Source of the DNA: Candidatus Omnitrophota bacterium
GTDB taxonomy: Bacteria; Omnitrophota; Gorgyraeia; Pluralincolimonadales; Pluralincolimonadaceae
Direction: 5' to 3'
DNA length: 64,000 bases
Assembly (NCBI GenBank): GCA_003141835.1
Contig: PLNR01000006.1
Span: forward strand, 78,558-142,557
Both the position numbers and the translations under genes were made by a program. The notes under the pieces were generated by a model. That model saw only the letters and a program-made list of their open reading frames with translations, ran no database searches and was not told the origin of the DNA. Shown here piece by piece: positions 4,025 to 37,073 of the stretch. How positions within the stretch are numbered: position 1 is the stretch's first letter; each line of letters starts with the position of its first letter.

Positions 4025-4060
4025 AAAAAGCCCCCTGATTCAATCATCAAAGGGCTTTCA
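4025..4060 (-). terminator. Rho-independent terminator downstream of the 4086..4442 gene
   Basis: On the minus strand the RNA reads AAAGCCC-(18-nt loop)-GGGGGCUUU, followed by UUGUUUUAUAAU. Confidence 0.55.
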
Positions 4061-4498: not shown

Positions 4499-5128
4499 TT
4501 ACCTTACCTTCTCGGCGAGGGCCCTGTAGTTCTCCTTCGGATCGCCTTTCCCGAATATCCCGCTCCCGACGCAAGCGAGGTCGACGCCCGCCTCCTTTAT
4601 CATCAGGATATTTTCCGTTTTCAAGCCGCCGTCCATCGCGATTATAGGCCTGCCGCTGCGCCCTTTTAACGCGCGCGCCTTATCGCATACCTCCGGGATG
4701 AACTTGCTGCCGTAAAAACCCGGGTTCACGGAAAGGAAAAGCAAGACATCAATATCCTTGAAATATCCCTCGACTTTCGACACGGGTGTCTCCGGGTTTA
4801 TCGCGATGCCCGCTTCCATGCCGAGCGCGCGGATCTTCGGGATGAGCCCGGCCGGGTCCTCTTTGGATTCATAGTGGAAGATGATCCTTCCCGCGCCGGC
4901 CCTTTTGAAGGGTTCGAGGTATTTGCCCGGCTCCTCGACCATGAGGTGTATCTCAAGTTTCAGCCCCGTCTTGACCTTCGCCAGGTCCCCGGCAGATATG
5001 CTCTTCGACGGGACGAATTTCCCGTCCATTATGTCTACTTGGACCAGGTCGCAGAAACCTCCGGATTGGGCGATCATCCTTTCCAATTCGCCGGGTTTGT
5101 CGGTCAGCAATGCCGGTACTATCCTCAT
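4499..5128 (-). CDS. rpe: Ribulose-phosphate 3-epimerase
   Basis: 209 aa. Motifs LVQVDIMDGKFVP and LLFLSVNPGFYGSKF are diagnostic of RPE. Confidence 0.9.
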   Translation of the reverse strand: MRIVPALLTDKPGELERMIAQSGGFCDLVQVDIMDGKFVPSKSISAGDLAKVKTGLKLEIHLMVEEPGKYLEPFKRAGAGRIIFHYESKEDPAGLIPKIRALGMEAGIAINPETPVSKVEGYFKDIDVLLFLSVNPGFYGSKFIPEVCDKARALKGRSGRPIIAMDGGLKTENILMIKEAGVDLACVGSGIFGKGDPKENYRALAEKVR

Positions 5129-5709
5129 CAGGTCGCTCCTTTGTTTATATAATCGAGTAAGAATTCCGCGAGATTATTTGAGGCGAGATCGACGTCCCTC
5201 TTGAGGCGCAGCAGCCTCGGCAGCCACAAGAGCTGCAGGAAAGACCTCGGCAGCTCATCCAACAGCGTGTCGCTTACCGCCTTCATGGCAATAAAGGGTA
5301 TACCATGTTTTTTTGCCACCGATAAGACCGCCCCTGATTCCATGTCAACGATGATGGCTCCTTCCCTTTCTGCTGCGGCCGTCTTCTCCTCACAAGTAAA
5401 TAACGGACGCGGGGAGCAGAACAACTTACGGTCTTCCGGGTCGGATACCACCACGTCACCGATCTTAAGGTCCCTGGAAAGCGCGCCGCAAAACCCGGCC
5501 GAGATTATCAGGTCGGGCTTGAAATCCCTTATGATATCCTCAGCCGTCACCCCGGCCTTGTCCGCGCCCATGCCGCTCCTCGCCAGTATCACATATCCGT
5601 CCGCCGCCTCTATCACGGGCCGCATCGACCTGAAAAGATCGATCCCCAAACGGCGCGCCAGGGGCCTGAGTTCCCAGTAAAACGCGAAGATAACGGCGAT
5701 CTTTTTCAT
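5128..5709 (-). CDS. PNP/MTA-nucleosidase-family protein; HpnG-like (adenosylhopane nucleosidase) candidate
   Basis: 193 aa. The IIVDMESGAV motif is typical of MTA/SAH-nucleosidase-type phosphorylases. It sits in the same operon as shc, hpnH, an hpnA-like gene and ispH, and its start overlaps the ispH stop. Confidence 0.65.
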   Translation of the reverse strand: MKKIAVIFAFYWELRPLARRLGIDLFRSMRPVIEAADGYVILARSGMGADKAGVTAEDIIRDFKPDLIISAGFCGALSRDLKIGDVVVSDPEDRKLFCSPRPLFTCEEKTAAAEREGAIIVDMESGAVLSVAKKHGIPFIAMKAVSDTLLDELPRSFLQLLWLPRLLRLKRDVDLASNNLAEFLLDYINKGAT

Positions 5710-6548
5710 TTCCGGCTGATATTCTTAAGTTTATTTTTGACTTCCTCTATCAGGACGTCGGGCGTCGACGCGCCCCCGATTATGCCCACGGACTTCACGC
5801 CTTTTAACGCGGAAGGCTTCAGGTACTTCGCGCTCTCTATCTGGATAGTGTTCTTGTTGTAATTATGGCAGAGTTTCTTGAGCTTCAGGGTGTTCGAACT
5901 GTGATGGCTTCCGACAACTATCATGAGGTCGACCTTTTGGGCAAGCTTTACTGCGTCTTCCTGCCTCTTCCTTATGTCGGCGCATATGGTGTTGATTATC
6001 TTTATTTCATGCGCTACCCTCATCACCTCGGCGACGACGTCCCTGCAGAGCTCCACCGAATGGGTAGTCTGGAAGATAAGCCCGACCTTGTATTTCAGTT
6101 TCGCCTGGTCCACCTCTTTATGGGTGGCTACCACGAGCGCCTTGGCGCTCAGGTGGCCCAGTATCCCTTTTATCTCGGCGTGGTCTTTATCCCCCACTAT
6201 CAGGACCTGGTAGCCTTCCTCTTCCAATTTCTTCGCCGCGATCTGCGCCTGCCTGACGATGGGACACGTGGCGTCGACTATCTCTATCTTCTTCGCCGCG
6301 ACCTTAGCCCTCTCGTCGGGAGATATCCCGTGCGCGCGAATGATAAGTATACCGTCTTTTTTTACGTCATTTATGCTCTTCGTTTCCCTCAAACCCCTTT
6401 CGGAAAGTTTGCGGGTTATGGCGTCGTTATGCACGAGCTCGCCGGTTATGTAGGCCGGCACGCCTTTCGAAAGCGCTTCTTCGGTCAGCTTGACCGCGCG
6501 GTTCACGCCGAAACAGCATCCTATCTTCTTGGGTGTCAATATCCTCAT
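5706..6548 (-). CDS. ispH: 4-hydroxy-3-methylbut-2-enyl diphosphate reductase IspH/LytB
   Basis: The conserved N-terminus MRILTPKKIGCCFGVNRAV carries the first Fe-S Cys. Further Cys lie in DATCP and NTICAD. The track start at 6704 would overlap the upstream gene. The ATG at 6548 gives an ATGA overlap with the hpnA-like stop. Confidence 0.9.
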   Translation of the reverse strand: MRILTPKKIGCCFGVNRAVKLTEEALSKGVPAYITGELVHNDAITRKLSERGLRETKSINDVKKDGILIIRAHGISPDERAKVAAKKIEIVDATCPIVRQAQIAAKKLEEEGYQVLIVGDKDHAEIKGILGHLSAKALVVATHKEVDQAKLKYKVGLIFQTTHSVELCRDVVAEVMRVAHEIKIINTICADIRKRQEDAVKLAQKVDLMIVVGSHHSSNTLKLKKLCHNYNKNTIQIESAKYLKPSALKGVKSVGIIGGASTPDVLIEEVKNKLKNISRK

Positions 6549-7561
6549 TTCTTTTCTCCCTGTTTCACGTAACCTTTCGAGCGGAACCAATCCACTGATT
6601 TTCGGAAGGCGTTCCCGATGTCGCCCTGCGGGAGCCCGAGTTCCTTTACCGCCTTTGAGCAGTCGAACGCGAACGGCTTGCCGCCAAGCCTCAAGCCCTC
6701 CCACGGGATCAACGGCTCTTTATGCGTAATATACTGGCATACCTTCTGCGACACAAAACCAAGCGGCAAAAAAAGCGCCGGGGGGAATTTCATCGCAGGC
6801 TTCGGCTTGCCTGACGCCTTGCTTAAGATATCAAACACTTCATCGAGTGTCAGGTTATCGGCTCCGAAGATATAGCGTTCCCCGGTCTTTCCCTTCTCTG
6901 CCGCGAGCAGGTGTCCGGCGGCGACATCCTCCACATCGATATAATTTATGACGGTATCTATATAACCCGGGAGCCTGCCGTTCAGATAATCGAGTATCAT
7001 CTTCCCTGGCGGGGTCAGGTTATAATCCCCTTCGCCCACAGGCGTAGTCAGGCTGACGGTGACGATCGGCAGCCCTGCCTTGACATATTTAACCGCCTCC
7101 TGGTAAGCCAGCCATTTTGAGCGGGCGTAGTGGCCCGGCATATTCTCCAAACCCAGGACCGCTCCTTCGTCTGACGGTTTCTTTTTCGTGCCCCCTTTTA
7201 AAATGGCCGCCGTGCTGGTAAAGATGACCTTATCGACCCCTTCTTCGAGCGCGGCCTGGAATAAATTCTTCGTCCCTGTCCAGTTGATATCATAGACTTC
7301 CTTGGGATTCGCATACCAGAGATGGACATAAGAGGCGAGGTGGTATACTGTCTTTACCCCGGCAAGTGCTTTTTTGAGCGAATCCTGGTCGCGCAGGTCG
7401 CCGTAGGCGAACTCGACATCGCATTTCAGTTTCTCCTCCCCGATGAGGTTAACGAGATTGGAATTCTTGCGCACGAGGCAGCGGACCCGGTCCCCTCTTT
7501 TGTCCAATAACCTCACTACGTGCGAACCCACGAACCCGTTCGAACCGGTGACGAGTATCAT
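6545..7561 (-). CDS. NAD-dependent epimerase/dehydratase, HpnA-like (hopanoid-associated sugar epimerase family)
   Basis: 338 aa. Rossmann motif MILVTGSNGFVGSHVV and catalytic YARSK (YxxxK). Operon context with shc, hpnH and ispH. Confidence 0.75.
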   Translation of the reverse strand: MILVTGSNGFVGSHVVRLLDKRGDRVRCLVRKNSNLVNLIGEEKLKCDVEFAYGDLRDQDSLKKALAGVKTVYHLASYVHLWYANPKEVYDINWTGTKNLFQAALEEGVDKVIFTSTAAILKGGTKKKPSDEGAVLGLENMPGHYARSKWLAYQEAVKYVKAGLPIVTVSLTTPVGEGDYNLTPPGKMILDYLNGRLPGYIDTVINYIDVEDVAAGHLLAAEKGKTGERYIFGADNLTLDEVFDILSKASGKPKPAMKFPPALFLPLGFVSQKVCQYITHKEPLIPWEGLRLGGKPFAFDCSKAVKELGLPQGDIGNAFRKSVDWFRSKGYVKQGEKK

Positions 7562-8535
7562 CTTTTAGTCTCCTGTTTAGGCGGCATCCAATATATGAAT
7601 AACCCGAAACCCGCCCAAGAAAGTTCCCGTATCCTCTTTATTATGCTGAGCGCGACCCCCATCTCCCCTCCTATGCCGAGGGCCGCCAGCGCCGCGTAAC
7701 CCGCGCCTTCCTGGACGCCTATCGCCGCCGGAACGAAGAAGAAAGCCGAATTAGCCGTCTTCATGAAAACTTCTATCACGAACGCTTTTACCCAATCGAC
7801 CGGGACGCCCAAGAAATATAATATTATATAGACCTCTATCGCTCCCGCGGCCCACCCAAGCAGGTGGAACGCGAAAGAACCGCAAAACCGCAGCCGCTCC
7901 TTAAGGTAAAAATCCCCTATTGTCCTGTCTATCTCTTCGATGCGGTCCTGCTTATCCTCAAAGGTCCCGCTTAATTTAAACCTGCGCGCGAACCGCAGTC
8001 CCACCATGAACAGCCCCTTCCTCTGGAGCAGGAGGAAGACTACAAATAACCCTAGGACGCCTATGAACGTCCAAAGTATCCCGGCGGCGACAACGCTTTC
8101 AAGCCGCAAAAATTTCAAGGCCAGCACGACGCCTATGAGCAGGAACGCGATCTTGCTCAGGAAGAGCGTGGTCTTGGCGATCACGACGCTGGCAAGCCCG
8201 TCGACCATATCGACGCCGTAGCGCCTGTTCAGAAGGATCGCCTTGACCGGTTCCCCTCCGATATACGCCGACGGGGTCGTGTAGTTAAGCGCTTCACCCG
8301 CCTGGCGCACCAGGAAAAACCTCCAAAGGCCCGGTAGTTTCACTCCTCTCCTGAATGACAGCCGCCAGCCCATCGTGTCGAAAAAATATATTACGAGATA
8401 AGCGAATATCACGGCCAATATGCGCCAATTTAGCGATACTACCTGGCTCCATATAAGCGCAGGGCCGGACCTCGCGATTATCCAGGCGAAAAGCGATACC
8501 GCGACGATAAATATTATTTTTTTAAATAAGCTCAT
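7558..8535 (-). CDS. UPF0104/flippase-like membrane protein (HpnL-like; lysyl-PG synthase C-terminal domain-like)
   Basis: 325 aa, about 8 predicted TM helices. It has the UPF0104 architecture usually found next to lipid glycosyl/phosphotransferases. It sits between the hpnA-like gene and a CDP-alcohol phosphatidyltransferase. Confidence 0.6.
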   Translation of the reverse strand: MSLFKKIIFIVAVSLFAWIIARSGPALIWSQVVSLNWRILAVIFAYLVIYFFDTMGWRLSFRRGVKLPGLWRFFLVRQAGEALNYTTPSAYIGGEPVKAILLNRRYGVDMVDGLASVVIAKTTLFLSKIAFLLIGVVLALKFLRLESVVAAGILWTFIGVLGLFVVFLLLQRKGLFMVGLRFARRFKLSGTFEDKQDRIEEIDRTIGDFYLKERLRFCGSFAFHLLGWAAGAIEVYIILYFLGVPVDWVKAFVIEVFMKTANSAFFFVPAAIGVQEGAGYAALAALGIGGEMGVALSIIKRIRELSWAGFGLFIYWMPPKQETKR

Positions 8536-9179
8536 TACTGCCGGCCTGTCAAATATTTGAAGTTCACAGCCAAAAGGACGATGCAGAATATATTGGCGCC
8601 TATCGCTCCCAGCCAGAGGAAAAGTTCCATCCTGTTCAGGACCGCGAAAAGCAGGACCACGAGCGAAAGATCACCGGCGCAAAAGACCTCGATCGCGCGA
8701 TCGGCGGCCGTTATCCTTTTTATCTCCCCCTCCGGCGCTTTCGGCATGCCATGGATGGCCGGGCCGAAGTTCATCGTCTTCTGCAGTATCGCCACAAATG
8801 TCGACAAAAACGTTCCTATGCCCGCCGCGACACCCAGGAATAGCATTATCGGGTCCTGGGTAAGGCGGAAGAGCCCCACGCTGATCCCGACAAAGGTAAG
8901 CGTGTGGATGCAGCAGTCTACCACAGTGTCCATCCAGCTCCCGAACGTCGAAGAGAGCCCCCTCGCCCGCGCCACTTCCCCGTCGCAATTGTCGAGGATA
9001 TAAAACATCTCGAACATGACGGCGCCGGCTATAAAGCCCGCTTTTGTCCCGGCCGAGAAAAAAAGGAACGCCAGGATCCCGGCCAGCCCCCCCAACAGGG
9101 TTATGAAATTAGGGTGCAGTCCGGACCTGATAAAAAAACCCGTGAACGGCGCAGCCAAAACGCGATTTATGCTTCTCAT
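8535..9179 (-). CDS. CDP-alcohol phosphatidyltransferase family protein
   Basis: 214 aa membrane protein. The signature D-x2-DG-x2-AR...G...D-x3-D is present as DNCDGEVARARGLSSTFGSWMDTVVD. Confidence 0.85.
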   Translation of the reverse strand: MRSINRVLAAPFTGFFIRSGLHPNFITLLGGLAGILAFLFFSAGTKAGFIAGAVMFEMFYILDNCDGEVARARGLSSTFGSWMDTVVDCCIHTLTFVGISVGLFRLTQDPIMLFLGVAAGIGTFLSTFVAILQKTMNFGPAIHGMPKAPEGEIKRITAADRAIEVFCAGDLSLVVLLFAVLNRMELFLWLGAIGANIFCIVLLAVNFKYLTGRQ

Positions 9180-9212
9180 CCCCCAACCCTCCCGGTCCCC
9201 GCCTTCCGGCGA

Positions 9213-9929
9213 TCAGCGTATCTTCAGGGATTCGGCTTTCTTTATATCTTCCGGAAAATCTACCTCGGTCCACTTCAACCCGGTTATCTCCTCGATCCCG
9301 GCCGGGACGTGCCTGATAAAATTATCGAGCGCTTCTTCGTAATCGGCCCCCCGGTCCAGGGCAATAGTCTCTTCGACGGCTTTAAGGAATTCCCTCCTGT
9401 GAGCGGCCGATGTCTTGAAAAAACCGACACCCTCGCCCACCTCATCGTGTTTGCGCGTTATCCGCCGCGCTATCTGGGTAACCCTCCAGCCGAGGACCGC
9501 GACCTTCATCTCCTCCCCGCTCTCGCTGAAATGCCTGTCTATAAGAAAACAATTTTCATTTTTGGAGCCGATAAGCCTTCCGATCAGGCGCGATTCAAAA
9601 ACGACGTCGGCGTCCATCAACAAAAGGTCATCCGCTGTTGAAAACTCCCTCCGCGCGACCCACAGGGAGACGATACTGCCGAGTTTATATTCCCTGTTTT
9701 CGATATATCTTATCTTCGCGCCGTTATGCTCTTCTCCGACCGCCTCCGCAATCATCTCCTTAAGATAGCCGGTGACCAAGCATATATCCCTGACGCCGGC
9801 GGCCGCGAGGGAATCGAGCATGCGTTCCAGGATGGTCCTTCCACCGATACGGATAAGGGATTTCGGGGTCTTGTCAATAATGGGTTTTAGGCGGTTGCCG
9901 ATCCCGGCCGCAAGTATTATCGCTTTCAC
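9213..9929 (-). CDS. Nucleotidyltransferase (LicC/phosphocholine- or aminoethylphosphonate-cytidylyltransferase-like)
   Basis: 238 aa. N-terminal MKAIILAAGIGNRLKP...PKSLIRIGG is the sugar/phospho-alcohol nucleotidyltransferase fold signature. Confidence 0.75.
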   Translation of the reverse strand: MKAIILAAGIGNRLKPIIDKTPKSLIRIGGRTILERMLDSLAAAGVRDICLVTGYLKEMIAEAVGEEHNGAKIRYIENREYKLGSIVSLWVARREFSTADDLLLMDADVVFESRLIGRLIGSKNENCFLIDRHFSESGEEMKVAVLGWRVTQIARRITRKHDEVGEGVGFFKTSAAHRREFLKAVEETIALDRGADYEEALDNFIRHVPAGIEEITGLKWTEVDFPEDIKKAESLKIR

Positions 9930-11041
9930 CCCGCCGCCCTCTTTCCTTTATGCGGGCCAGGTTTCCTTAGCACGGACTTTAACGACGCCAAAAACCTGCG
10001 CGCATCACCGGCGGTTATCTGCCCCATATTCGCTATCCTGAAAATGACCTTCTTGAGTTTTGACTGGCCCGCGTAGATGATAAAACCTTCCGCTTTCAGC
10101 GCATCATGCAACCTGGTGTAAGTCATCCCTTTAGGGAGGCGCAGCGCGGTTATCGTATTCGAAAGGTATTTTGGCGCGATGAGGTATTCAAAACCGGCGG
10201 CCTCGAAACCTTTCCTTAGAAAGACCGCCAGGTTTTTATAACGTTTAACGCGGTTATTCACCCCTTCTTTCAAAAGCTCGTCGAGCGCGACATCCAGGGC
10301 GTAAAACGCCTGGACCGCCGGCGTAAAGAGCGGCTCGCCTTTCTTCTGCCCCTCGAGATTCGAGGGGATATCGAAATACAACGAACGCGGGGCGATCTTT
10401 TTCAGCCCTGGCAGGGCGGTCTTTTTTACCAGCACAAACGATATCCCGGGGATGCCCTCTATGCACTTGTTGGCGGTCCCGACGCAAAGCCCGACGCCCG
10501 CCTTACCGGGATCCAGTTCTTCGCCGCCCAACGCGCTTATGGAATCCAGGAGATAGAGTTTTTTGTATTTCCTGCACAGCTTGCCTATGCCGTATACGGG
10601 GTTCAAGATCCCGGTCGACGTCTCGTGATGCACCATCGCTATAACGGAGATATCTTTATTTTTCCTTATCTTTTCTTCAGCGGCATCTATATCCGGCGTC
10701 TTTTTCACGTCGGAGGCAAGGTTTATAAGGCCTATGCCGTGCCTTCTCGCTATCTCGGCTATCCTTCCGGCGTAAATACCGTTATTAACCACCAACATCT
10801 TTTTGCCCCGCGGGACAGACGAGACGACCGCGGCCTCCAATGCCGCCGTACCTGAACCGGTAAAGAATACAGCCTCGTAAGCTCCGGCTATGCCGAACGC
10901 CCGGAGCAGTTTTTTCGCGCAGCCTGTCATGAGCCTGCCGAACTCCGGTTCCCGGTGGCACATATCCGGCGCGAGAAGCGACCTCCTCACCTTTTCCTTG
11001 ATATTCACCGGCCCGGGATTCAACAGTACGTATCTTTTCAT
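9926..11041 (-). CDS. Class V aminotransferase, 2-aminoethylphosphonate:pyruvate (PhnW)/serine-pyruvate type
   Basis: 371 aa. N-terminus YVLLNPGPVNI...HREPEF matches the LLTPGPxx...HRxxxF pattern of the PhnW/AGXT family. The PLP Lys region is TANKCIEGIPG. Confidence 0.7.
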   Translation of the reverse strand: MKRYVLLNPGPVNIKEKVRRSLLAPDMCHREPEFGRLMTGCAKKLLRAFGIAGAYEAVFFTGSGTAALEAAVVSSVPRGKKMLVVNNGIYAGRIAEIARRHGIGLINLASDVKKTPDIDAAEEKIRKNKDISVIAMVHHETSTGILNPVYGIGKLCRKYKKLYLLDSISALGGEELDPGKAGVGLCVGTANKCIEGIPGISFVLVKKTALPGLKKIAPRSLYFDIPSNLEGQKKGEPLFTPAVQAFYALDVALDELLKEGVNNRVKRYKNLAVFLRKGFEAAGFEYLIAPKYLSNTITALRLPKGMTYTRLHDALKAEGFIIYAGQSKLKKVIFRIANMGQITAGDARRFLASLKSVLRKPGPHKGKRAAG

Positions 11042-11589
11042 GCGTTTTTGAACCTTTTCGCTATCTCAGGAGGGGCGATGCCGACCCTCGGCACTTTTTC
11101 CGAAGGATCGCGCCCCACTTTTACCAGGATAAAACTCGGCCCCTCTTTTTTCAGGCAATCCTTGAATGCTTCGGCAAAATCCTGCCCGAGGTCTTTCTTT
11201 ATGACGTTTTTTATCCCGCATCCTTCGGCTGCCCGCGCCAGGTCCACCCGGGGGGAGATGGTCGGCTGGCCGCCCGTCGAATCATAGCATTCGTTATCGA
11301 GCACTACGTGGATATAGTTTTTTGGTGAGATATTCGATATCATCGAAAGCACGCCGAAGTTCATGAGCAGGTTACCGTCCCCGTCCAGGACGACGACCTT
11401 CTTTCCCGGCCGGGCCATCGCGAACCCCAGGCCGATCGATGACGCCTGGCCCATAGATCCGAGCATATAGAAATTCCGCGGCCGGTCTTTCGCGTTGAAG
11501 GCATCGCGGGAGATGAACCCGTTGGCGCAGACGACATATTCGTCGCCTATAAGGGAGATTATCTTCGTTATCGCCTCGCGCATGATCAT
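11038..11589 (-). CDS. Phosphonopyruvate/sulfopyruvate decarboxylase beta subunit (ComE-like, TPP-binding C-terminal domain)
   Basis: The TPP motif GDGNLLMNFGVLSMISN...N is present. The track start at 11619 (MHLHQ...) is an N-terminal extension that overlaps the alpha gene. The ATG at 11589 (MIMREAIT) forms an ATGA overlap with the alpha stop. Confidence 0.75.
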   Translation of the reverse strand: MIMREAITKIISLIGDEYVVCANGFISRDAFNAKDRPRNFYMLGSMGQASSIGLGFAMARPGKKVVVLDGDGNLLMNFGVLSMISNISPKNYIHVVLDNECYDSTGGQPTISPRVDLARAAEGCGIKNVIKKDLGQDFAEAFKDCLKKEGPSFILVKVGRDPSEKVPRVGIAPPEIAKRFKNA

Positions 11590-12059
11590 TCCAGCGTGTC
11601 CTCTTTGATGAAGATGCAATATGGCTTGCCTTTCGCGATCTCTTTATCGGCCTCGGCCAGGGCCGCGGCGAGATCCTCCCTGCCGCATACGCTGTTGCGG
11701 ATACCGAATGTCTCCATAAGCTCGACGCAATGCCTGCCCATGATTATGTGCTCCGGGGCGTCCTTCCCGCCGTATCCGCGGAAACTGACAAGCATAAGGA
11801 CCGGGATGTCATAGATCATGTTGAGGCTGGTGAGGACATTCAGTGAATAGCCCAGGCCGGAATTCTGCATCAGGACGCAGGGCTTTCTTCCGCCGAGATA
11901 CGCGCCGGCCGCCATGCCCAGCGCAGTGTCCTCCCTGACCGCCGGGATATATTCCCCGGCGAGGGCGGTTATTATGCCTCCCAGGAGGGAACAGGGCACA
12001 CCGGTAAAAAAATCGAACCCCAGGCCTTTAAGTCTCGTCTTTAGCGTTGTCGCATCCAT
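11586..12059 (-). CDS. Phosphonopyruvate/sulfopyruvate decarboxylase alpha subunit (ComD-like, TPP pyrimidine-binding domain)
   Basis: 157 aa. FFTGVPCSLLGGI...ALGMAAGAYLGGRKPCVLMQNSGLG is the N-terminal domain of the Ppd/ComD family. Confidence 0.75.
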   Translation of the reverse strand: MDATTLKTRLKGLGFDFFTGVPCSLLGGIITALAGEYIPAVREDTALGMAAGAYLGGRKPCVLMQNSGLGYSLNVLTSLNMIYDIPVLMLVSFRGYGGKDAPEHIIMGRHCVELMETFGIRNSVCGREDLAAALAEADKEIAKGKPYCIFIKEDTLE

Positions 12060-12070: not shown

Positions 12071-12931
12071 TCAGACCGCCCTGGCGAACTTCCTGTATAT
12101 TATATTGGATATCTCGTCTTCGAGGTCATGCAGGAATTTCAGTTCGGCGTCGGCCCTCTGGTATTCGTTCACATCCATATACCTGAGAAAATCCCTCAGG
12201 CCCATGTCAACGATCTCGTAGGGGATAGCCGGCTGGCCCATCTCGCCCAGCCTTATTATTATTGCCTTCATGAGAGCCTCCGGCTTCAGCTCGACGTCCC
12301 AGACCTTGCTCTTTGCCACTTCTTTACGGAACGGGATTATATTCTCCGGCTTATAGAAATCCCCCCTGAACTTCATGTAATCTATTTTCGACCAAAAATC
12401 CCACTGGGCCGAACAGAGCGAACAATTGGGGAGGAATATCTGGACGGGGTTGTTATAGGTATCGAAATAGGTGTGCGAGAGCAGGCTCACCGCGGCCGAG
12501 AGCTTGTCCGTGGATATCTTGGTCACTCTCCCGTCGCCGACCACATCCCTGGCGTCGTCGAGCAGCTTAAGGAATCCGGGCGCCTCTTCGCTTATGCGCG
12601 TGAAAGCGTATATCTTCTTTTCGAGCTTCTGCCTTTTTGCGGCGTCGGCCGGCGGCGTGCCGTCAAATTCTTTCCGCAGCTGCGCCGCCTTCCCGTCCAC
12701 GAACCTGCCCAGGGCCGCAAAATCTTTCTTCTCCGCCTCCGGCCTCGCGAAAAGCTCGAGCGTGACGTCGAGGAAATCAGGCTGGTTCTCGAGTATATGG
12801 GCGTAGACCCTGTGGAAATGCGCGGGTTTCTGGTCGATAACGGGTATCACGGAATATATCGCGGCGCCAAGGTCAAGCTTACTGGAATCCAAAAGCCTCG
12901 CCGCCAAAACCATATGAGTCCCCCAGTCCAT
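12071..12931 (-). CDS. Hypothetical protein, possible Zn-dependent phospholipase C / S1-P1 nuclease-fold protein
   Basis: 286 aa with no signal peptide. N-terminus MDWGTHMVLAARLL resembles the W-x-x-H zinc-ligand start of the Zn-PLC/P1 family. Several conserved His/Asp follow (AHFHRVYAH, SHTYFD). A strong AAGGAG Shine-Dalgarno lies 5 nt upstream. Confidence 0.4.
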   Translation of the reverse strand: MDWGTHMVLAARLLDSSKLDLGAAIYSVIPVIDQKPAHFHRVYAHILENQPDFLDVTLELFARPEAEKKDFAALGRFVDGKAAQLRKEFDGTPPADAAKRQKLEKKIYAFTRISEEAPGFLKLLDDARDVVGDGRVTKISTDKLSAAVSLLSHTYFDTYNNPVQIFLPNCSLCSAQWDFWSKIDYMKFRGDFYKPENIIPFRKEVAKSKVWDVELKPEALMKAIIIRLGEMGQPAIPYEIVDMGLRDFLRYMDVNEYQRADAELKFLHDLEDEISNIIYRKFARAV

Positions 12932-13016: not shown

Positions 13017-14015
13017 CTAGGTGAACTGCCAGCCGATCAAAGTCATTATATCCCTGAATGATTTCCCTTCGAGCACGCTGGCCGGCTCGAAGCCGCAATG
13101 GACCGCGCATTCCGCGCAGCGCGGGTTCTTGCTTTTGGGCCCGTACTTCTTCCATTCGGTCTTTTCGATAAGTTCCTTGTAAGTGGCGAAATGCTTGTCC
13201 GCAAGCTGGTAACAGGGCGAACGCCATCCTATGGGGTTGCGCGTCGGCGTCGACCAGGGCGCGCAATCCAGGTCGCGCTTGCCCTGCACAAATTCAAAAT
13301 ATAGCGGCGAGCCGAGAAAATTGTATTTTTTGAACTCCGGCTCAAGTTTCCGGAAGAAATCCGCGAGTTCTTTCTTGCGGAAGAAGAACTCCTCGCCTAC
13401 CTGCGGGTACCCGTAGGCCGGCGATATCAGGAAACCGTCCACCCCGGCGCCCTGGAGGGTCTTGAACAATTGCTTAAGCTCGTTTATATCCGTCTGCCTG
13501 TAGATGGTCGTATTGGTGCAGACGAAGAAACCCTTCTTCTTCGCCGCCTTTATCGCCTCGATCACCCTGGCGTATGTCCCCTTAAGCCCGGTTATCGCGT
13601 CATGCGTCTTCTCCAGCCCGTCGATATGGAAATTTACCATGAGGTTTCCGCTCGGCTTCAGCTTGTCGATCTTGTCCTTGAAAAGCAGGCCGTTGGTGCA
13701 GAGGTATATATATTTTCCCTTCCTGGCGAGTTTCTCTATCAGCTCGGAGATATACGGGTAGACGAGCGGCTCTCCGCCGCAGATCGACACTATCGGCGCC
13801 CCGCACTCATCCGCCGCCTTGAGGCATTCGGCGACGGTCATCATCTTGTGCAGGTCGCGCTTATATTCCCTTATGCGCCCGCAGCCTTCGCACGATAAGT
13901 TGCACATTAACGACGGCTCCAGCATCAAGACAAGCGAGAACCGTTTATTGTTCCTGAGCTTGTTCGCGATTATGTGTTTCGTCATTCTGGCCGTTAAGCC
14001 GGGCTTGAACCTCAT
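13017..14015 (-). CDS. hpnH: Radical SAM adenosyl-hopene transferase HpnH
   Basis: 332 aa. Radical-SAM Cys triad CNLSCEGCGR, plus C-terminal cysteines (CAPW...CYQ...CAECAVHCG) typical of HpnH. Lies immediately downstream of shc. Confidence 0.85.
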   Translation of the reverse strand: MRFKPGLTARMTKHIIANKLRNNKRFSLVLMLEPSLMCNLSCEGCGRIREYKRDLHKMMTVAECLKAADECGAPIVSICGGEPLVYPYISELIEKLARKGKYIYLCTNGLLFKDKIDKLKPSGNLMVNFHIDGLEKTHDAITGLKGTYARVIEAIKAAKKKGFFVCTNTTIYRQTDINELKQLFKTLQGAGVDGFLISPAYGYPQVGEEFFFRKKELADFFRKLEPEFKKYNFLGSPLYFEFVQGKRDLDCAPWSTPTRNPIGWRSPCYQLADKHFATYKELIEKTEWKKYGPKSKNPRCAECAVHCGFEPASVLEGKSFRDIMTLIGWQFT

Positions 14016-14018
14016 TTT

Positions 14019-15920
14019 TCAGACCTTTGTCTTTCCGCGGTTGGCCGCATATTCCGAGAGGGCAATAAGAGGAAAATAAACGGAATAAAGTTCGTAACGC
14101 AGGTAGCATACCCTCGGAAAACCCGTCCCGGTAAAACTATCCTCTTTCCAGTTGCCGTTCGCCTCCTGGCTCCCTATGAGATAATCTATTCCGCGCGCGG
14201 CTGCGCCGCTCTCGTGGTCGCCTGCGGCGAAGAGTATGAAAAGCGCCCAGGCCGTCTGCGAAGCGGTCGATGGGCCTTTGCCTTTCTTGAACGGGTCCTC
14301 GTAAGTCGCCGCCGATTCCCCCCACCCCCCATCGTCATTCTGGACGCCGTATATCCATTTCGCCGCGGCTTCGAGCTCGCCCTTCGACGATCCCCCGGAC
14401 GAGAAAGAAAGGCCGCGCGCGGCAAGGAACGTGCCGTATATATAATTCACTCCCCACCTGCCGTACCACGTGCCGTCGGCTATCCTGTCTTTTTTCAAAA
14501 ATCTTATCGCGTCCTTTAGCGGGGATTTTTTAGCGTCGAAGCCGAGCCGGCCCAAAAGCTCGCACGTCCTTCCGGTTACATCCGCGCACGTTGGGTCGAG
14601 CATCGCATTATGGTCCGAAAAAGGCACCTTGTTCAGGAAACGCTTGTTGTTATCCCTGTCGTAAGAGCTGAACCCGCCGTCGCTGGACTGCATCTTCAGC
14701 ATCCAGTCAAGGCCGCGGTCGAATCCGGCTTTCTTCTGCGGCTCTTCCGTCCCCATATCTATCTGCGTCAACCCGAGCAATACCTGCGCGGTATCGTCTA
14801 TATCCGGGTAAAATTCGTTCCTGAACTGGAAATACCATCCTCCGGGCGAAGCGTCCCCGGCCTTTACCTTCCAATCGCCGGTCTCGTTCACCTGCTTCGA
14901 GAGGAGCCAGCGCCCGGCCTTCCTCATCGCATCGTGGCCCTTCGGGAAACCCGATATCCCGAGGGCGTATGCGCAGAGCGCCGTATCCCAGACCGGCGAT
15001 ACGCAGGGCTGCATCTCCGCCTCATTGCCGTTATCTATAGTTAATTTCAGAACTTCTTCGAGATTCGATTTCAAGAGCGGATGGTCGTTCTTATAGCCCA
15101 GGCAGCTCAATGCCATTACGGAATTTATCATTGCCGGATAGATGGCGCACAAGCCGTCGCTCTTGTCGAACCTTTTTATCATCCATTGCCCGGCTTTCTT
15201 CACTGCCGCGCCCTTAAAGAACGCTAATCTCAATTTATATAAGGTCTTTATCGTGCCATCCAGGAAGAGGAAAAGGTTCTTCCAACTTACCACCCGCATG
15301 TCCCATCGTATGCCGCAATCTTTCGTCCTGTGTCCGGCCGTGTAAAGCTCATCGACGCTGAAATTTTTCGCGAGGGGCCGCACCGGCCTGGAAGCCCAGA
15401 TCACCGAAAGCGGCACGACGATCGTCCTCGTCCAGGCGCTGAAATCGTAAATATTCACCGGGGACCACTCCGGGAGCAGGATAAGCTCCGGCGGTATAGC
15501 CGGCGCTGCGTCCCAGTTCCCGAGGCCGAACATGGCCAGGTAGAACCTGTTATAGCTGTTGGACTTTTCGATTCCGCCGAGGCTTAATATTATCCGGCGG
15601 TCCCGCGCCATCAGCTGGTTCCCTTCTTCGAAGCCTTTAAGCTTCAGCGCCATATAGTTCTTTATGGTGGCGTTGAGTTCCGGCGGGCCGCCCGGATAGA
15701 CCGGCCATCCCCCGTCCTCAAGGCGCCCGGCCAAAATAAAATTCACAAGTTTACCTTCCAGCTCCTCGTCCCTTATGCCAAGGAACCGCAGAAGGAAGAT
15801 AGTATCCGCCTCCAGGCCCAGGTCCATATGGAAATTCGAATGGAAATGGCCGTCGGCATCCTGTTTGCCCAGGATATACTCCTGGGCGCTGTTTATCGCG
15901 TTCGAGAGTCTCTCGTTCAT
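14019..15920 (-). CDS. shc: Squalene-hopene cyclase
   Basis: 633 aa. Catalytic DIDDTA motif (DxDDTA) and multiple QW repeats (GGWxxxxxG...). The C-terminal GGWGE segment is present. Confidence 0.93.
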   Translation of the reverse strand: MNERLSNAINSAQEYILGKQDADGHFHSNFHMDLGLEADTIFLLRFLGIRDEELEGKLVNFILAGRLEDGGWPVYPGGPPELNATIKNYMALKLKGFEEGNQLMARDRRIILSLGGIEKSNSYNRFYLAMFGLGNWDAAPAIPPELILLPEWSPVNIYDFSAWTRTIVVPLSVIWASRPVRPLAKNFSVDELYTAGHRTKDCGIRWDMRVVSWKNLFLFLDGTIKTLYKLRLAFFKGAAVKKAGQWMIKRFDKSDGLCAIYPAMINSVMALSCLGYKNDHPLLKSNLEEVLKLTIDNGNEAEMQPCVSPVWDTALCAYALGISGFPKGHDAMRKAGRWLLSKQVNETGDWKVKAGDASPGGWYFQFRNEFYPDIDDTAQVLLGLTQIDMGTEEPQKKAGFDRGLDWMLKMQSSDGGFSSYDRDNNKRFLNKVPFSDHNAMLDPTCADVTGRTCELLGRLGFDAKKSPLKDAIRFLKKDRIADGTWYGRWGVNYIYGTFLAARGLSFSSGGSSKGELEAAAKWIYGVQNDDGGWGESAATYEDPFKKGKGPSTASQTAWALFILFAAGDHESGAAARGIDYLIGSQEANGNWKEDSFTGTGFPRVCYLRYELYSVYFPLIALSEYAANRGKTKV

Positions 15921-16705
15921 ATGTTAAGGCAGTATTTGACTATTTTTTCAAGCTCTTTTATGTCTACGGAAGTGTTTTTGCAAGGCCCTTCAGGGCGCTT
16001 GTTCGGGATGCCGAAGACCGGCATCTTCGGGGCGGTGTCCTGTATGCCTGAGATAAGGTCCCTCTCGCACGCGACGCCTATCACCGCGTCGGGATTGTTG
16101 TCTTTAACGGCTTTCCTGGCTTCATCGCCTCCAAAAGCCGTGTAAGCCACAAACTGGTATTTTTCGCCTAGTTCTTTTACCTTGGCCCTTACCTCGGCCG
16201 AGAGACAGCGCGGCAGGAGGACGAGTATCTTCTTTGAGCTCTTTCCCGTCCGCGTAGCGTACATAAGGTCGTTATGGAATTTGACGAAGGAATTGCCTAT
16301 CCTGTCTCTCGCTATGCCGGATATCCCGGCCAACCTCACCGCTCCGGAGAGTAAGACGCGCAACGAGATCCGCCTGACAAAATAAGACGGCGCAAGCTTG
16401 ACTTTCAAGAGCGCAGATAAGACCTGCGATAGGTACCAGGCAGCGAGTAAAGAAGCGGAAATACAGAATGCCGCACCGGCCATGCCGGTAAACCCGGGCC
16501 CAAAGCTTTCAAAACGCGGCAACGCGAGGTACCAAAACAACCAAACTCCAAGCAAGACAAGGATTAATACCAAAAAAGAAAAGAAGATGAATAGCGATTT
16601 CGGTGCGTCGCTCGAGCTTCCGCCCTTGGAGCCGGGCTGCCAATCGGCCCACTCGTCCCCCAATAACCTGTCTTCCAGCCTCTTACCCTGCCCTGTCTCT
16701 TTCAT
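15917..16705 (-). CDS. DUF116-family membrane protein
   Basis: 262 aa. Two N-terminal TM helices, then the conserved KKILVLLPRCL motif (DUF116 LLPHCL-like). Stop overlaps the shc start (ATGA). Confidence 0.55.
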   Translation of the reverse strand: MKETGQGKRLEDRLLGDEWADWQPGSKGGSSSDAPKSLFIFFSFLVLILVLLGVWLFWYLALPRFESFGPGFTGMAGAAFCISASLLAAWYLSQVLSALLKVKLAPSYFVRRISLRVLLSGAVRLAGISGIARDRIGNSFVKFHNDLMYATRTGKSSKKILVLLPRCLSAEVRAKVKELGEKYQFVAYTAFGGDEARKAVKDNNPDAVIGVACERDLISGIQDTAPKMPVFGIPNKRPEGPCKNTSVDIKELEKIVKYCLNI

Positions 16706-17807: not shown

Positions 17808-17840
17808 GAAAAAAAGACCGCTGCCCTGAATAGCAGCGGT
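17808..17840 (-). terminator. Rho-independent terminator (minus strand) downstream of the PEP-CTERM gene
   Basis: On the minus strand the RNA reads ACCGCUGC-UAUUCAGG-GCAGCGGU, an 8-bp stem followed by CUUUUUUU. Confidence 0.6.
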
Positions 17841-30613: not shown

Positions 30614-31867
30614 ATGCTAACTTTATTCAATAGCATGGACATAAATACAACCCGTACTATTAACGAGCTAGTCTCCGCTATTGCTTATGTCCTTGATGTG
30701 ATGAGTGAAGGCACAAACCTCTACCACTCTTGGCGCGTAAGCATATTCGCTTCCCAATTCGCGAAAACGCTCATCCCCGACGAAAGAAAAACGATATTCT
30801 ACGCCTCGCTCCTGCATGATATCGGTTATCTCGCGCTTCCCGAACATATAACGCATTACCTTTCATCGCAGGAAGACCCTTCGAAGGACCCGGTGATCCT
30901 TTCCCATCCTATCATCGGCGCGGAACTGACCAGCCAGATACCGAACCTCTCGACGATAGCGAAGCTTATCCTGAACCACCACGAATGGTACAACGGCAGG
31001 GGTTATCCGCTCGGCAAGCAGCGCAACGAGATCCCGCTGGGCGCGCAGATAATATTGCTCGCCGACCAGATGGACATGCTCATGAGGAGCAAATCGATAA
31101 CCGGCATAAAGGCGATCGAGAAAGAAATATCCTTATGGTCAAATGAGCGCGTCTCGGCCGAGCTCCTTGAAACGGCAATGAGGGTCCTCACGGATGAGGG
31201 ACTGGTCGAAGAAGTATCGGATAAAGAGAAAATACCGGCGGTATTCAACAGGGTAAGGGCTGAGACCGGGCCGGTGGACATTCCCGGGAGCGTCGACGCG
31301 GTAGGCATCGCCTGCGAGGTATTTTCGCAGCTGATAGACACTAAACATCCCTCGATGATCGGGCATTCCAAGAGGGTCTCGGTCTATTCGATACTCATCT
31401 CGCTGGCAATGAACCTCTCCCACGACGATATAACCAAAACGAAATGGGCGGCCCTGCTCCACGACGTAGGTAAGCTCGGCATCGCCAAGGGCCTCATCAG
31501 CAAACCCGGAAAACTTACCCCGCAGGAATTTGACGCGATGAAGATACATGCCGTATTTACGCGCGAACTGCTCGAGACGATAGTGGATTTTAAAGAGATA
31601 GCCTTGATAGCGAGCTCCGATCACGAGCGTTTTGATGGGAAGGGTTATCCGATGGGCATCAAGGGCAACCAGATACCTTTAGGAACAAGGATAATCTCAG
31701 TCGCCGACGCCTTCGACGCGATGACATCTACAAGGACCTACCGCAGGGCGATGTCCAAGGAAGCGGCCTGCGACGAGATCGAAAGATGCGCCGGGACCCA
31801 GTTCGACCCGGCCGTGGTCAAGGAAGCTATTCCGGTCCTGCGCAATCTCTCTGTTTCCCTCCTCTAA
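30614..31867 (+). CDS. Tandem HD-GYP domain phosphodiesterase-family protein
   Basis: 417 aa with two complete HD-GYP modules: (LLHDIGY...HHEWYNGRGYPLG) and (LLHDVGKLG...DHERFDGKGYPMG). The only clear plus-strand gene. The true start may be the second ATG (30635, MDINTT...). Confidence 0.82.
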   Translation: MLTLFNSMDINTTRTINELVSAIAYVLDVMSEGTNLYHSWRVSIFASQFAKTLIPDERKTIFYASLLHDIGYLALPEHITHYLSSQEDPSKDPVILSHPIIGAELTSQIPNLSTIAKLILNHHEWYNGRGYPLGKQRNEIPLGAQIILLADQMDMLMRSKSITGIKAIEKEISLWSNERVSAELLETAMRVLTDEGLVEEVSDKEKIPAVFNRVRAETGPVDIPGSVDAVGIACEVFSQLIDTKHPSMIGHSKRVSVYSILISLAMNLSHDDITKTKWAALLHDVGKLGIAKGLISKPGKLTPQEFDAMKIHAVFTRELLETIVDFKEIALIASSDHERFDGKGYPMGIKGNQIPLGTRIISVADAFDAMTSTRTYRRAMSKEAACDEIERCAGTQFDPAVVKEAIPVLRNLSVSLL

Positions 31868-31868: not shown

Positions 31869-32561
31869 TTATTCTTTCCCGAGCTTGCGGCTGAGGTAGC
31901 CCCCTGTGAGGCCGTCAATTGTGGCGGTGAGCTCTTCTATCCTGATCTCTCTTTCCGTGTAAGCAGGGTTTTCTGTATCGGTTACCCTGGTAAGTTGCCT
32001 CTGGAGTTTCTTTCTTTCGAAATAGGCGGTATTAAGGGCCTCCATTATTTCATTCCTTAGCTCAACCATAAGTTTCGAGCGCGAGTCTATCGAGGTCTGG
32101 GCGGTGTTATATATAAGATCTCCCAAGTCCCATTTCGCCGTGAAATCCCAGCCACTGCTCATGTTATCGGGACCGACGAAGAAATTTGTCTTGCCGCTTG
32201 CGGTGGCGTAGGTTATGGTATCGTCGATATCGTTATTGTAGCCGACGGATACCTCGGGCATAAGTGCGCGCGCGGCGGCCTGCGCTCGCCAGTTGGCTAT
32301 CTTATCGGGATTGACCTCAGCGTATCTGATCGCGGCGCGCTGGAGTTCTAGGATGGCCGGTTCGTTGGGATCAGGATGATAAGAAGCTTTATTTTGGACT
32401 AAGGCTGTTTCAGCAGCTTCCTCTTTAGAGGCCACGGCCTCTTCATTAACAACGGGAGCCGGTTTGATTGATGTTTTCTCCACCTTCTCCCGAGCACAAC
32501 CATTTATCCACGGCACAGTCATACACAATACCAAAATCACGCTCAGTTTATCAGGACGCAT
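31869..32561 (-). CDS. Hypothetical lipoprotein
   Basis: 230 aa. The signal peptide ends in the lipobox-like WINGC. The C-terminal half is predicted helical. Last gene of the low-GC three-gene block. Confidence 0.45.
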   Translation of the reverse strand: MRPDKLSVILVLCMTVPWINGCAREKVEKTSIKPAPVVNEEAVASKEEAAETALVQNKASYHPDPNEPAILELQRAAIRYAEVNPDKIANWRAQAAARALMPEVSVGYNNDIDDTITYATASGKTNFFVGPDNMSSGWDFTAKWDLGDLIYNTAQTSIDSRSKLMVELRNEIMEALNTAYFERKKLQRQLTRVTDTENPAYTEREIRIEELTATIDGLTGGYLSRKLGKE

Positions 32562-32649
32562 TTGCTTGTGTCTCCTTTCTAAGGTAATAGACGTTAATTG
32601 GAAGGAAAAACTTTCAAAAATATTTTTTCAATGAGTTAATTTACGCCTC

Positions 32650-37022: not shown

Positions 37023-37073
37023 CTTCCTTGTCTAGTAAATTTAATTGCTTTTTTGGGGTAATATTTTTGGGGA

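Follow-up and report, generated by a model that had tools for sequence, protein, structure and literature searches.

A PEP mutase-less aminoethylphosphonate head-group cassette predicted within a hopanoid operon of Candidatus Omnitrophota

What would a bacterium do with the later steps of a 2-aminoethylphosphonate (AEP) pathway lodged among its hopanoid genes, and what would feed these steps if no phosphoenolpyruvate (PEP) mutase (PepM) is encoded beside them? These questions are raised by a stretch of 64,000 nucleotides (nt) from Candidatus Omnitrophota (contig PLNR01000006.1, positions 78,558-142,557), which we call the window and whose own numbering is used for its coordinates. We propose, with confidence evenly divided between belief and doubt, that window positions 7558-12059 hold an AEP head-group cassette of a conserved and widespread type, which moves in company with hopanoid genes and is represented here in its Omnitrophota form, its product being AEP transferred onto a membrane hydroxyl. 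According to the listing of open reading frames (ORFs) and profile searches, every gene from that for the DUF116 protein to rpe lies on the minus strand and reads in one direction, in this order:

15917-16705, minus strand: DUF116 protein (Pfam PF01976, 95.8 bits), the first gene of the unit
14019-15920, minus strand: squalene-hopene cyclase, shc (TIGR01507, 638 bits, cut-off 431)
13017-14015, minus strand: adenosyl-hopene transferase HpnH, a radical S-adenosylmethionine enzyme (TIGR03470, 389 bits, cut-off 225)
12071-12931, minus strand: Unk286, a 286-amino-acid (aa) protein with no family match, between hpnH and the next gene
11586-12059, minus strand: alpha subunit of a thiamine pyrophosphate (TPP)-dependent decarboxylase of the Ppd/ComD family (PF02776)
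11038-11589, minus strand: beta subunit of the TPP decarboxylase, Ppd/ComE family (PF02775)
9926-11041, minus strand: class V aminotransferase (Aminotran_5) of the AEP transaminase family (TIGR03301, 325 bits)
9213-9929, minus strand: LicC/PntC-like cytidylyltransferase (NTP_transf_3/NTP_transferase, PF12804 and PF00483)
8535-9179, minus strand: CDP-alcohol phosphotransferase, a membrane protein (PF01066)
7558-8535, minus strand: HpnL-like flippase-like membrane protein (LPG_synthase_TM; PF03706, 120 bits; TIGR03476, 172 bits)
6545-7561, minus strand: HpnA-like NAD-dependent epimerase/dehydratase (TIGR03466, 357 bits, cut-off 368)
5706-6545, minus strand: IspH, 4-hydroxy-3-methylbut-2-enyl diphosphate reductase (TIGR00216, 258 bits), with its start set at 6545 to agree with 279-aa orthologues
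5128-5709, minus strand: HpnG-like nucleoside phosphorylase (PF01048; TIGR03468, 84 bits, below cut-off)
4499-5128, minus strand: ribulose-phosphate 3-epimerase, rpe (TIGR01163, 167 bits), overlapping hpnG by 1 nt
4026-4059, minus strand: terminator-like hairpin, a 14-bp stem followed by a T run

An earlier sequence-only reading of this DNA had named the five enzyme families running from the decarboxylase subunits to the CDP-alcohol phosphotransferase, and matches in Pfam, NCBIfam and PDB bear out all of them; profile searches likewise uphold the hopanoid flanks that it described, with shc and hpnH upstream and the HpnL-like gene, hpnA, ispH and the HpnG-like gene downstream on the same strand. 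Its description of the five genes as overlap-coupled stands for three of the four junctions (4-nt overlaps at alpha/beta, beta/aminotransferase and aminotransferase/cytidylyltransferase) and fails at the fourth, where a gap of 33 nt separates the cytidylyltransferase and CDP-alcohol phosphotransferase genes. The HpnL-like gene in turn overlaps the CDP-alcohol phosphotransferase gene by 1 nt, and the module extends functionally into it. Just two strong minus-strand terminator-like hairpins were found, one upstream (17817-17840) and the other at 4026-4059, which fits a single unit that extends from the DUF116 gene, whose end overlaps shc by 4 nt, to just past rpe; the second hairpin is the probable end of the transcription unit.

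By these family assignments, and with no gene of the ICL/PEPM fold in the window, the set corresponds to the AEP route minus PEP mutase, as had been claimed. In the route that we envisage, the split TPP enzyme would decarboxylate phosphonopyruvate to phosphonoacetaldehyde, which the aminotransferase would convert to AEP. The LicC/PntC-like enzyme would then join AEP with CTP to give CMP-AEP, from which the CDP-alcohol phosphotransferase would move the aminoethylphosphonyl group onto a membrane-bound hydroxyl, with the HpnL-like protein presumably acting on the product. We infer a C35 bacteriohopanepolyol as the acceptor, which would yield a phosphono-hopanoid, because the cassette lies, translationally coupled, between hpnH and hpnA-ispH-hpnG and is embedded in the hopanoid loci of several other phyla; diacylglycerol is an alternative acceptor. 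Such a product may represent a new head-group chemistry.

Of these steps, the first calls for a choice between two kinds of 2-oxoacid decarboxylase, the phosphonopyruvate decarboxylases (Ppd) and the sulfopyruvate decarboxylases (ComDE). Both a TPP_enzyme_N and a TPP_enzyme_C domain are present (PF02776, PF02775), and the beta subunit has the GDG...N motif for TPP, with G70-D71-G72 and N99 invariant in the homologue alignment. The sequence-only reading had proposed that the best matches of the two subunits would decide between Ppd and ComDE; this comparison cannot discriminate. On the Ppd model TIGR03297, which was built for the fused protein and against which the window subunits were scored separately, alpha reaches 118.3 and beta 181.2 bits (cut-off 312.5), and on the ComD and ComE models, TIGR03845 and TIGR03846, they reach 113.2 and 185.9 bits, with neither cut-off (147.95 and 221.5) attained. 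Split beta subunits encoded directly beside pepM score in the same range as the window protein on TIGR03297 (177-194 bits) and show the same near-tie between the ComE and Ppd models (e.g., 180.6 versus 176.9 and 191.6 versus 191.2 bits), which makes the hidden Markov model (HMM) test uninformative; after this calibration on PepM-adjacent enzymes, the scores were dropped as a discriminator. Evidence of other kinds leans toward a predicted Ppd. The best PDB match of beta is 9iz3_B, a “putative phosphonopyruvate decarboxylase beta subunit” (E 6e-38); alpha retains 36 of 41 and beta 45 of 49 residues that are conserved in at least 12 of 13 PepM-linked homologues; and the concatenated subunits are 43-48% identical to PepM-linked split Ppd versus 35% to the annotated ComDE of Leisingera. 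A neighbor-joining tree of the concatenated subunits left its deep nodes unsupported, with the window and a sister Omnitrophota lineage grouped in 14 of 60 replicates.

The remaining enzymes fit the later steps. The aminotransferase scores 324.9 bits on the PhnW-AepZ model TIGR03301 (cut-off 360.8), and its best PDB matches are the AEP transaminases 9kk8 and 1m32 and the PntC-AEPT fusion 6pd1 (E ~1e-50). The cytidylyltransferase (PF12804, 57 bits) matches LicC (1jyk, 1e-14), PntC-AEPT (6pd1, 2e-13) and IPCT (2xme) in PDB, and by fold and closest solved relatives it is predicted to be LicC/PntC-like. The CDP-alcohol phosphotransferase (PF01066, 45 bits) has AF2299 (4o6m), PIPS and IPCT-DIPPS as its best PDB matches, and on alignment with these its motif, DNCDGEVARARGLSSTFGSWMDTVVD, fits Dx2DGx2ARx8Gx3Dx3D and is complete. 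Together, the genes for these two enzymes are collinear with a 464-aa fusion of a nucleotidyltransferase with a CDP-alcohol phosphotransferase in a sister Omnitrophota lineage (locus L089; the L numbers denote loci compared here). The flippase-like protein, at 172.4 bits over its full length on the HpnL model TIGR03476 (cut-off 195.65) and 30% identity to the bona fide HpnL of Mycetohabitans, is on this comparison classed as HpnL-like and not as HpnL. Its match to TIGR00374, “flippase-like domain,” relates it to the flippase domain that MprF-type proteins carry; its gene accompanies the cassette in Nitrospirales, Chlamydiae, Rokubacteria, Roseomonas and Mycetohabitans.

An argument for a connection with hopanoids comes from the company that homologous cassettes keep. 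A scan of GTDB genomes with the beta subunit returned 80 loci, which fall into three groups. Those of group (a), in Chloroflexota, Bathyarchaeia and Acidobacteriota, have pepM-ppdA-ppdB with a canonical PepM and no hopanoid genes nearby. Those of group (b) have the full cassette of the two TPP subunits, the aminotransferase and the nucleotidyltransferase, with or without the CDP-alcohol phosphotransferase and the HpnL-like protein, in the following settings:

Omnitrophota: hopanoid neighbors shc, hpnH, hpnG, hpnA and ispH
Rokubacteria/Methylomirabilota: hopanoid neighbors shc, hpnH and hpnN
Binatia: cassette between hpnM-hpnN and hpnK/hpnI/hpnJ (HpnK, HpnI and HpnJ above the HMM cut-off, HpnN and HpnM below)
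Brocadiia: hopanoid neighbors hpnI/J/K
Nitrospirales and one metagenome-assembled genome (MAG) of Chlamydiae: HpnL-like gene, with or without hpnA
Scalindua: almost no hopanoid genes nearby

Group (c) consists of Nitrospinota loci (L014, L020, L034, L083 and others) with only a short-chain dehydrogenase/reductase gene (HpnA-like) upstream of the two TPP subunit genes and no aminotransferase, nucleotidyltransferase or PepM. By eye, from translations, their neighbors include glyS, a pyruvate-phosphate dikinase gene and an MsbA-like ABC transporter, and these loci look like a different use of the decarboxylase. Within group (b), the Binatia cassettes (L074, L048, L053, L058 and L084) abut hpnK/hpnI/hpnJ and lack the CDP-alcohol phosphotransferase. 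In some loci of the set that these form with L017, L059 and L068, the gene after the cytidylyltransferase encodes an ArnT-like GT39 membrane transferase, which suggests another acceptor or transferase.

The same association recurs in culturable Proteobacteria. In Roseomonas marmotae (p1318-3), a complete cassette with a canonical aepX lies between hpnN/VacJ and ispH-hpnH-hpnG-shc-hpnEDC, in the order VacJ, MMPL, PntC, aepX, aepY, LPG-synthase-domain protein, AEPT, CDP-alcohol phosphotransferase, ispH, hpnH, hpnG, shc and hpnEDC. In Mycetohabitans rhizoxinica (pBRH01), the order is CDP-alcohol phosphotransferase, 2-oxoglutarate (2OG) oxygenase, LPG-synthase-domain protein, PntC, aepX (fused), aepY and AEPT, continuing with dxs, two hypothetical proteins, an MMPL protein, a substrate-binding protein and ispH; here, HMM scores identify the LPG-synthase-domain protein as a bona fide HpnL (330 bits, cut-off 196) and the MMPL protein as a bona fide HpnN (1244 bits, cut-off 1100). 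Closer to the window, the sister Omnitrophota locus L089, on a 697-kb contig of GCA_023818695.1, runs shc, hpnH, the two TPP subunits, aminotransferase, CDP-alcohol phosphotransferase, HpnL-like protein, hpnA and hpnG, followed by a 334-aa protein, a Rieske protein, the fusion mentioned above, a convergent gene for a PepM variant fused to a nucleotidyltransferase, and a lytB paralogue. Its proteins are 37-54% identical to those of the window (HpnG only 28%), and the shared hopanoid-embedded arrangement must then be older than the split of the two lineages. The Rieske and 334-aa proteins (L089:13020-14395), the latter with a faint squalene-cyclase-C-like repeat, are both absent from the window. 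An Omnitrophica MAG carrying the protein P0178 was set aside as a distant lineage, with a LytB only 24% identical to the IspH of the window. Across phyla, the link between hopanoid loci and the phosphonate cassette is robust.

About 55 proteins share 62-83% identity with the beta subunit; those of them that are named come from Candidatus Omnitrophota MAGs, and lineages beyond these reach at most 56%. Public assemblies, GTDB genomes and JGI metagenomes contain relatives, at least 15 Omnitrophota contigs in all, in which the genes follow the order DUF116, shc, hpnH, (Unk286), TPP alpha, TPP beta, aminotransferase, nucleotidyltransferase, CDP-alcohol phosphotransferase, HpnL-like, hpnA, ispH, hpnG and rpe. 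Compared with three relatives, the cassette genes have a ratio of nonsynonymous to synonymous substitution rates (dN/dS) of 0.04-0.14, and shc, hpnH and ispH a similar one of 0.07-0.11; these values are rough, dS being close to saturation. The cassette is thus clearly under purifying selection, a relic or decaying cassette is ruled out, and the conserved order together with the low dN/dS indicates that the arrangement is not due to chance. The DUF116 gene, overlap-coupled to shc in the window, keeps its place upstream of shc in all of the related Omnitrophota loci. On one related contig (L002:1247-8080), the DUF116 gene, shc and a truncated hpnH are repeated in tandem ahead of the full copy, either as a true duplication or as an assembly artifact.

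We next consider the missing first step. The sequence-only reading found no ORF of the ICL/PEPM fold in the window, and this is confirmed in three ways: the motif ED[KRQ]x5NS was not found in any stop-to-stop ORF of at least 60 aa in the 64 kb, the PepM HMM had no match at E<=10 with filters off among window ORFs of at least 50 aa, and tblastn of the window with an Omnitrophota PepM-like protein recovered the nucleotidyltransferase gene only. The motif screen was misleading when applied to related loci, as it implied that all hopanoid-linked cassettes are without PepM; the HMM then found, in L028, L030, L035, L055 and L070, PepM-like proteins in which ED[N/A/S]xFPK[K/R]CS replaces EDKx5NS. Mostly fused to a C-terminal nucleotidyltransferase domain, these have PEP_mutase as their best NCBIfam model, at 264-273 bits compared to 295 for the canonical PepM of L076 (cut-off 319.55). 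They adjoin the cassette in Chlamydiae, Rokubacteria (L055 and L070), Nitrospiria, Verrucomicrobia and L181; positions, with that in the sister Omnitrophota locus added, are:

L030:7589-9256: PepM-like variant, Chlamydiae
L089:10001-11653: PepM-like variant, sister Omnitrophota
L035:3807-5480, minus strand: PepM-like variant, Nitrospiria
L028:5103-6008: PepM-like variant, Verrucomicrobia
L181:10001-11641: PepM-like variant

Of two protein searches, in which 7701 and 5757 proteins passed the E-value thresholds, the N...C form of the motif was seen in 111 of the 120 best-scoring matches listed in one and in 87 of the 102 new ones listed in the other. Full-length fusions of the variant with a nucleotidyltransferase also occur in several Omnitrophica MAGs, as recovered with an Omnitrophica fragment of the variant. 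As published phosphonate inventories require EDKX5NS (PMC6697681; PMC8942020), the variant form would have been dropped from them. In all, a canonical PepM accompanies the cassette in Roseomonas and Mycetohabitans, and the PepM-like variant does so in sister Omnitrophota, Rokubacteria and Chlamydiae; a PEP mutase gene is not adjacent to the window Ppd and is adjacent in the homologous clusters L030, L055, L070, L089, L088, L178 and L181. The suggestion of the sequence-only reading that a mutase is encoded elsewhere gains support. One Omnitrophota lineage (L089) keeps a PepM-like/nucleotidyltransferase fusion in its cluster, 6-8 kb from the TPP genes; the motif of that fusion is noncanonical. 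In the lineage of the window, the PepM-type gene would sit elsewhere in the genome or have been replaced.

A candidate for such a replacement is Unk286, an ORF that the sequence-only description had omitted. It has no match in Pfam or NCBIfam or among PDB sequences, and its family is small, with 104 representatives among 1.84 billion. Its AlphaFold model (predicted local distance difference test score, pLDDT, 96) is all-alpha, with 14 helices, and a fold search found no PDB neighbor; the model is not a TIM barrel, which rules out a divergent PepM. The residues D2, H6, D33, H40, H45, H153 and D157 are nearly invariant and an SHxYFDxxNNPVQxFxP stretch is conserved, which suggests a putative metal site; dN/dS is ~0.06-0.08. 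The gene is present in 5 of 11 close relatives, in six more from a metagenome scan and in Brocadiia, always directly upstream of TPP alpha. The metagenome scan returned 80 loci, 52 of them at 36% identity or more, and in about 40 of these 52, Unk286 and a Ppd-like gene are direct neighbors, in no fewer than six different architectures. One has LicD, Unk286, an Unk286 paralogue and a fused Ppd, with an AEPT-nucleotidyltransferase fusion nearby; another runs hpnJ, hpnK, hpnI, Unk286, TPP alpha, TPP beta, an aminotransferase-nucleotidyltransferase fusion and CDP-alcohol phosphotransferase; a third runs shc, hpnH, two Unk286 genes, TPP alpha, TPP beta, HpnL-like and CDP-alcohol phosphotransferase; and three further arrangements exist. 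None of the approximately 40 loci has a match to the PepM HMM. Unk286 is also seen as a tandem pair with a degenerate paralogue; members of the family lie at L091:6827-8675 and in L105-L107.

This pattern allows the idea that Unk286 supplies the decarboxylase in PepM-less clusters, either as a nonhomologous substitute for PEP mutase or by making another 3-substituted pyruvate. It occupies the place that pepM takes in canonical clusters, the pairing with Ppd persists through clusters of both the LicD glycan and hopanoid types, and a confident fold with no PDB neighbor, conserved His/Asp residues and low dN/dS also speak for it. Seven close relatives, however, have the cassette without Unk286, loci of Scalindua, Nitrospirales and Binatia lack both Unk286 and PepM, and homologues at 65-67% identity lie in Fur-Unk286-AhpC-rubrerythrin operons with no Ppd nearby, which point to a redox or metal role. 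The apparent mutual exclusion of Unk286 and PepM is also a modest signal, as this Ppd clade is often without PepM anyway. We consider a role for Unk286 as a supplier very doubtful, and are equally guarded about its extended form, in which Unk286 would be an unrecognized metalloenzyme with a fold not in PDB that feeds Ppd by a second route to the C-P bond or toward another aminoethyl-X-phosphoryl head group. Were it so, the Unk286-dependent product would end on hopanoids in this organism.

Several observations weigh against an AEP-hopanoid cassette, and they concern both its chemistry and its acceptor. The decarboxylase subunits and the aminotransferase all score below the curated equivalog cut-offs. 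The active-site comparison yielded only lineage-private substitutions: Y126I in TPP beta and S15K, R42A, E233K and P238L in the aminotransferase, all at otherwise nearly invariant positions (53 of 54 and 32-34 of 34 other sequences in the compared sets). All other groups, including the sister lineage linked to the PepM variant, hold the consensus at these positions, and the substitutions would allow a changed specificity. About 15 close relatives, covered for up to ~10 kb on each side, show no PepM of either type. In every examined locus with enough flank, the variant PepM is within ~8 kb of Ppd (L085 ends at a contig end), so that an unlinked copy in the window lineage would be unusual. The variant itself has a noncanonical motif, with Asn replaced by Cys, and its mutase activity is putative; we take this Asn to be the residue that contacts the transferring phosphoryl group in the Mytilus enzyme, and Cys at that position is presumably the catalytic residue in the lyase branch of the superfamily. 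Finally, no report of a phosphono- or phospho-hopanoid was found in the open-access literature, and the acceptor could be diacylglycerol.

The last point leads to an ordinary phosphonolipid, made by the same chemistry on diacylglycerol or another glycerolipid, with the hopanoid linkage reflecting only co-regulated membrane remodeling. This is the published prediction for the homologous clusters of Burkholderia and Nostoc (PMC5987646; PMC8942020), the closest solved CDP-alcohol phosphotransferases act on soluble or glycerolipid substrates, and the Scalindua cassettes have almost no hopanoid genes in their neighborhood. Against it, nesting inside hopanoid operons is repeated in Omnitrophota (two lineages), Rokubacteria, Binatia, Brocadiia, Acetobacteraceae and Burkholderiaceae, and in the window gene overlaps tie the cassette in between hpnH and hpnA; we therefore regard a glycerolipid acceptor as possible though somewhat unlikely. 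A different departure would keep the lipid and change the head group to a phosphate: PepM-less lineages would decarboxylate 3-phosphohydroxypyruvate, the product of SerA, to phosphoglycolaldehyde, which would pass through phosphoethanolamine and CDP-ethanolamine to the lipid. Such a route needs no PepM, in keeping with its absence here and in the Scalindua, most Nitrospirales and Binatia loci, and LicC-family enzymes do act on phospho-amines (PMC6697681). The private substitutions of the aminotransferase touch its N-terminal PGP-loop region and R42, and two distant relatives of Unk286 adjoin D-2-hydroxyacid dehydrogenase-family genes, of which one looks SerA-like on visual inspection. We nonetheless judge this rather unlikely: the PepM-less enzymes of Scalindua, Nitrospirales and Binatia keep the PepM-linked conserved residues at most compared positions, and homologous cassettes in several phyla include a PepM or PepM-like gene. 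Moreover, we know of no decarboxylase with activity on 3-phosphohydroxypyruvate, and literature searches returned none. If it were true, bacteria would possess a hopanoid-linked pathway that makes CDP-ethanolamine de novo.

Sulfopyruvate had also been offered by the sequence-only reading as a substrate of the decarboxylase, which would then be of the ComDE type, with the aminotransferase making taurine from sulfoacetaldehyde. The two-subunit organization agrees with this, some sources name homologues sulfopyruvate decarboxylase, and the beta subunit scores marginally higher on TIGR03846 than on TIGR03297 (186 versus 181 bits), a margin that the PepM-adjacent split subunits deprive of meaning. 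The lower identity to the annotated bacterial ComDE than to PepM-linked enzymes speaks against it, as does a tblastn search with TPP beta in which annotated comD/comE appeared only on Roseobacter-group plasmids, at ~38-43% identity. A coenzyme M or sulfonate-catabolism context like that of Leisingera comDE was not seen among the neighbors, although no search was aimed at comA, comB, comC or xsc. What makes the suggestion weak is the cytidylyltransferase: LicC/PntC-type enzymes need a phosphoryl or phosphonyl nucleophile and, to our knowledge, cannot activate a sulfonate, so that two of the five genes would be left without a role. We hold a sulfonate product to be highly improbable.

The AEP cassette, to return to it, is not new as a gene set. 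Essentially the same cluster is already published as a predicted phosphonolipid cluster (PMC5987646, Fig. 7; PMC8942020, section 13). The former depicts it in Burkholderia and a lichen Nostoc, with hpnL drawn in the figure, and its content is given as CDP-alcohol phosphatidyltransferase, nucleotidyltransferase, pepM, ppd, AEPT and hpnL, with or without a 2OG oxygenase (PMC5987646; PMC8942020). “Burkholderiales_CDP-OH” is the largest RefSeq family, from which no phosphonolipid has been characterized (PMC8942020), and the name “Group 1” phosphonolipid is credited to Yu et al. 2013 (PMC8942020, section 13). With this type, the window shares Ppd, AEPT, a PntC-type cytidylyltransferase, the CDP-alcohol phosphotransferase and HpnL/LPG-synthase-TM in one cluster, amounting to five of the seven core genes of the Burkholderiales_CDP-OH reference cluster (L088); Ppm-PntC and the 2OG-Fe(II) oxygenase are absent, and the window differs further in its phylum, its Ppd split in two subunits and its additional Unk286. 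It is thus the PepM-less, split-Ppd, Unk286-bearing Omnitrophota form of a known, uncharacterized predicted cluster type, and the contribution made here is to place the cassette inside or beside hopanoid loci in several phyla.

Comparison with other systems sharpens this placement. The AEP systems of Treponema denticola, Atopobium and Olsenella (PMC6697681) share with the window the three soluble steps after Ppm; they use LicD-type or glycosyl transferases and decorate glycans, whereas the window has a CDP-alcohol phosphotransferase, a lipid context and no Ppm. The PntC enzymes prefer AEP over phosphocholine (PMC6697681). As in IPCT-DIPPS, a nucleotidyltransferase precedes a CDP-alcohol phosphotransferase, the two being fused in L030 and L089 and adjacent in the window; the window proteins, however, score only 88 and 43 bits against a cut-off of 580, inositol-phosphate synthase genes are absent, and the context is one of Ppd and AEPT. 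The likeness to ComDE lies in the shared superfamily of TPP decarboxylases, the organization in two subunits and HMM scores of similar height; the differences lie in the unreached cut-offs, the 35% identity and the genomic context already noted. Among the known hopanoid tailoring enzymes (HpnH/HpnG, HpnI/J/K and HpnO), the window cassette shares an operon with hpnH and hpnG and the Binatia and Brocadiia cassettes abut hpnI/J/K, yet no bacteriohopanepolyol with a phosphonate or phosphate head group has been described. A genome survey of Acetobacteraceae found terpenoid genes beside pepM and proposed an “undiscovered terpene-phosphonate” (PMC8776678), and in recent hopanoid papers HpnL still figures as a protein without a known function, with phosphonates left unmentioned (PMC12324291; PMC12583986). 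In the open-access literature, nothing was found that joins hopanoids with phosphonopyruvate decarboxylase, or sulfopyruvate decarboxylase with a cytidylyltransferase and a lipid.

Elsewhere in the window, positions 32000-38000 form a low-GC island (43-47% GC versus ~53%), possibly horizontally acquired, with a 1136-aa ORF (33612-37022) that has only a weak match to DUF900, an alpha/beta-hydrolase family, and a 321-aa ORF (32650-33615) with no Pfam match. Near the operon, a PAS-PAS-GGDEF-HD(HD_5) protein and a tandem HD/HD_5 protein (20110-22869 and 30614-31867) are encoded, both of the cyclic-di-GMP signaling type.

Taken together, these results connect two bodies of literature that have so far remained apart, that on phosphonates, in which the most abundant predicted “phosphonolipid” cluster has no product, and that on hopanoids, in which HpnL has no assigned function. 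They also bring to light a large family of PepM-like proteins with a variant motif, overlooked in phosphonate surveys by the standard EDKx5NS filter, and, in Unk286, a small family of unrepresented fold, tightly linked to Ppd in PepM-less clusters, that matters for enzyme discovery. The hypothesis that they open, of an AEP-modified bacteriohopanepolyol handled by HpnL, is testable in the culturable Roseomonas, Mycetohabitans and Burkholderia. If true, it would add a new class of hopanoid head group, with a bearing on the interpretation of biomarkers and on microbial phosphorus redox cycling.

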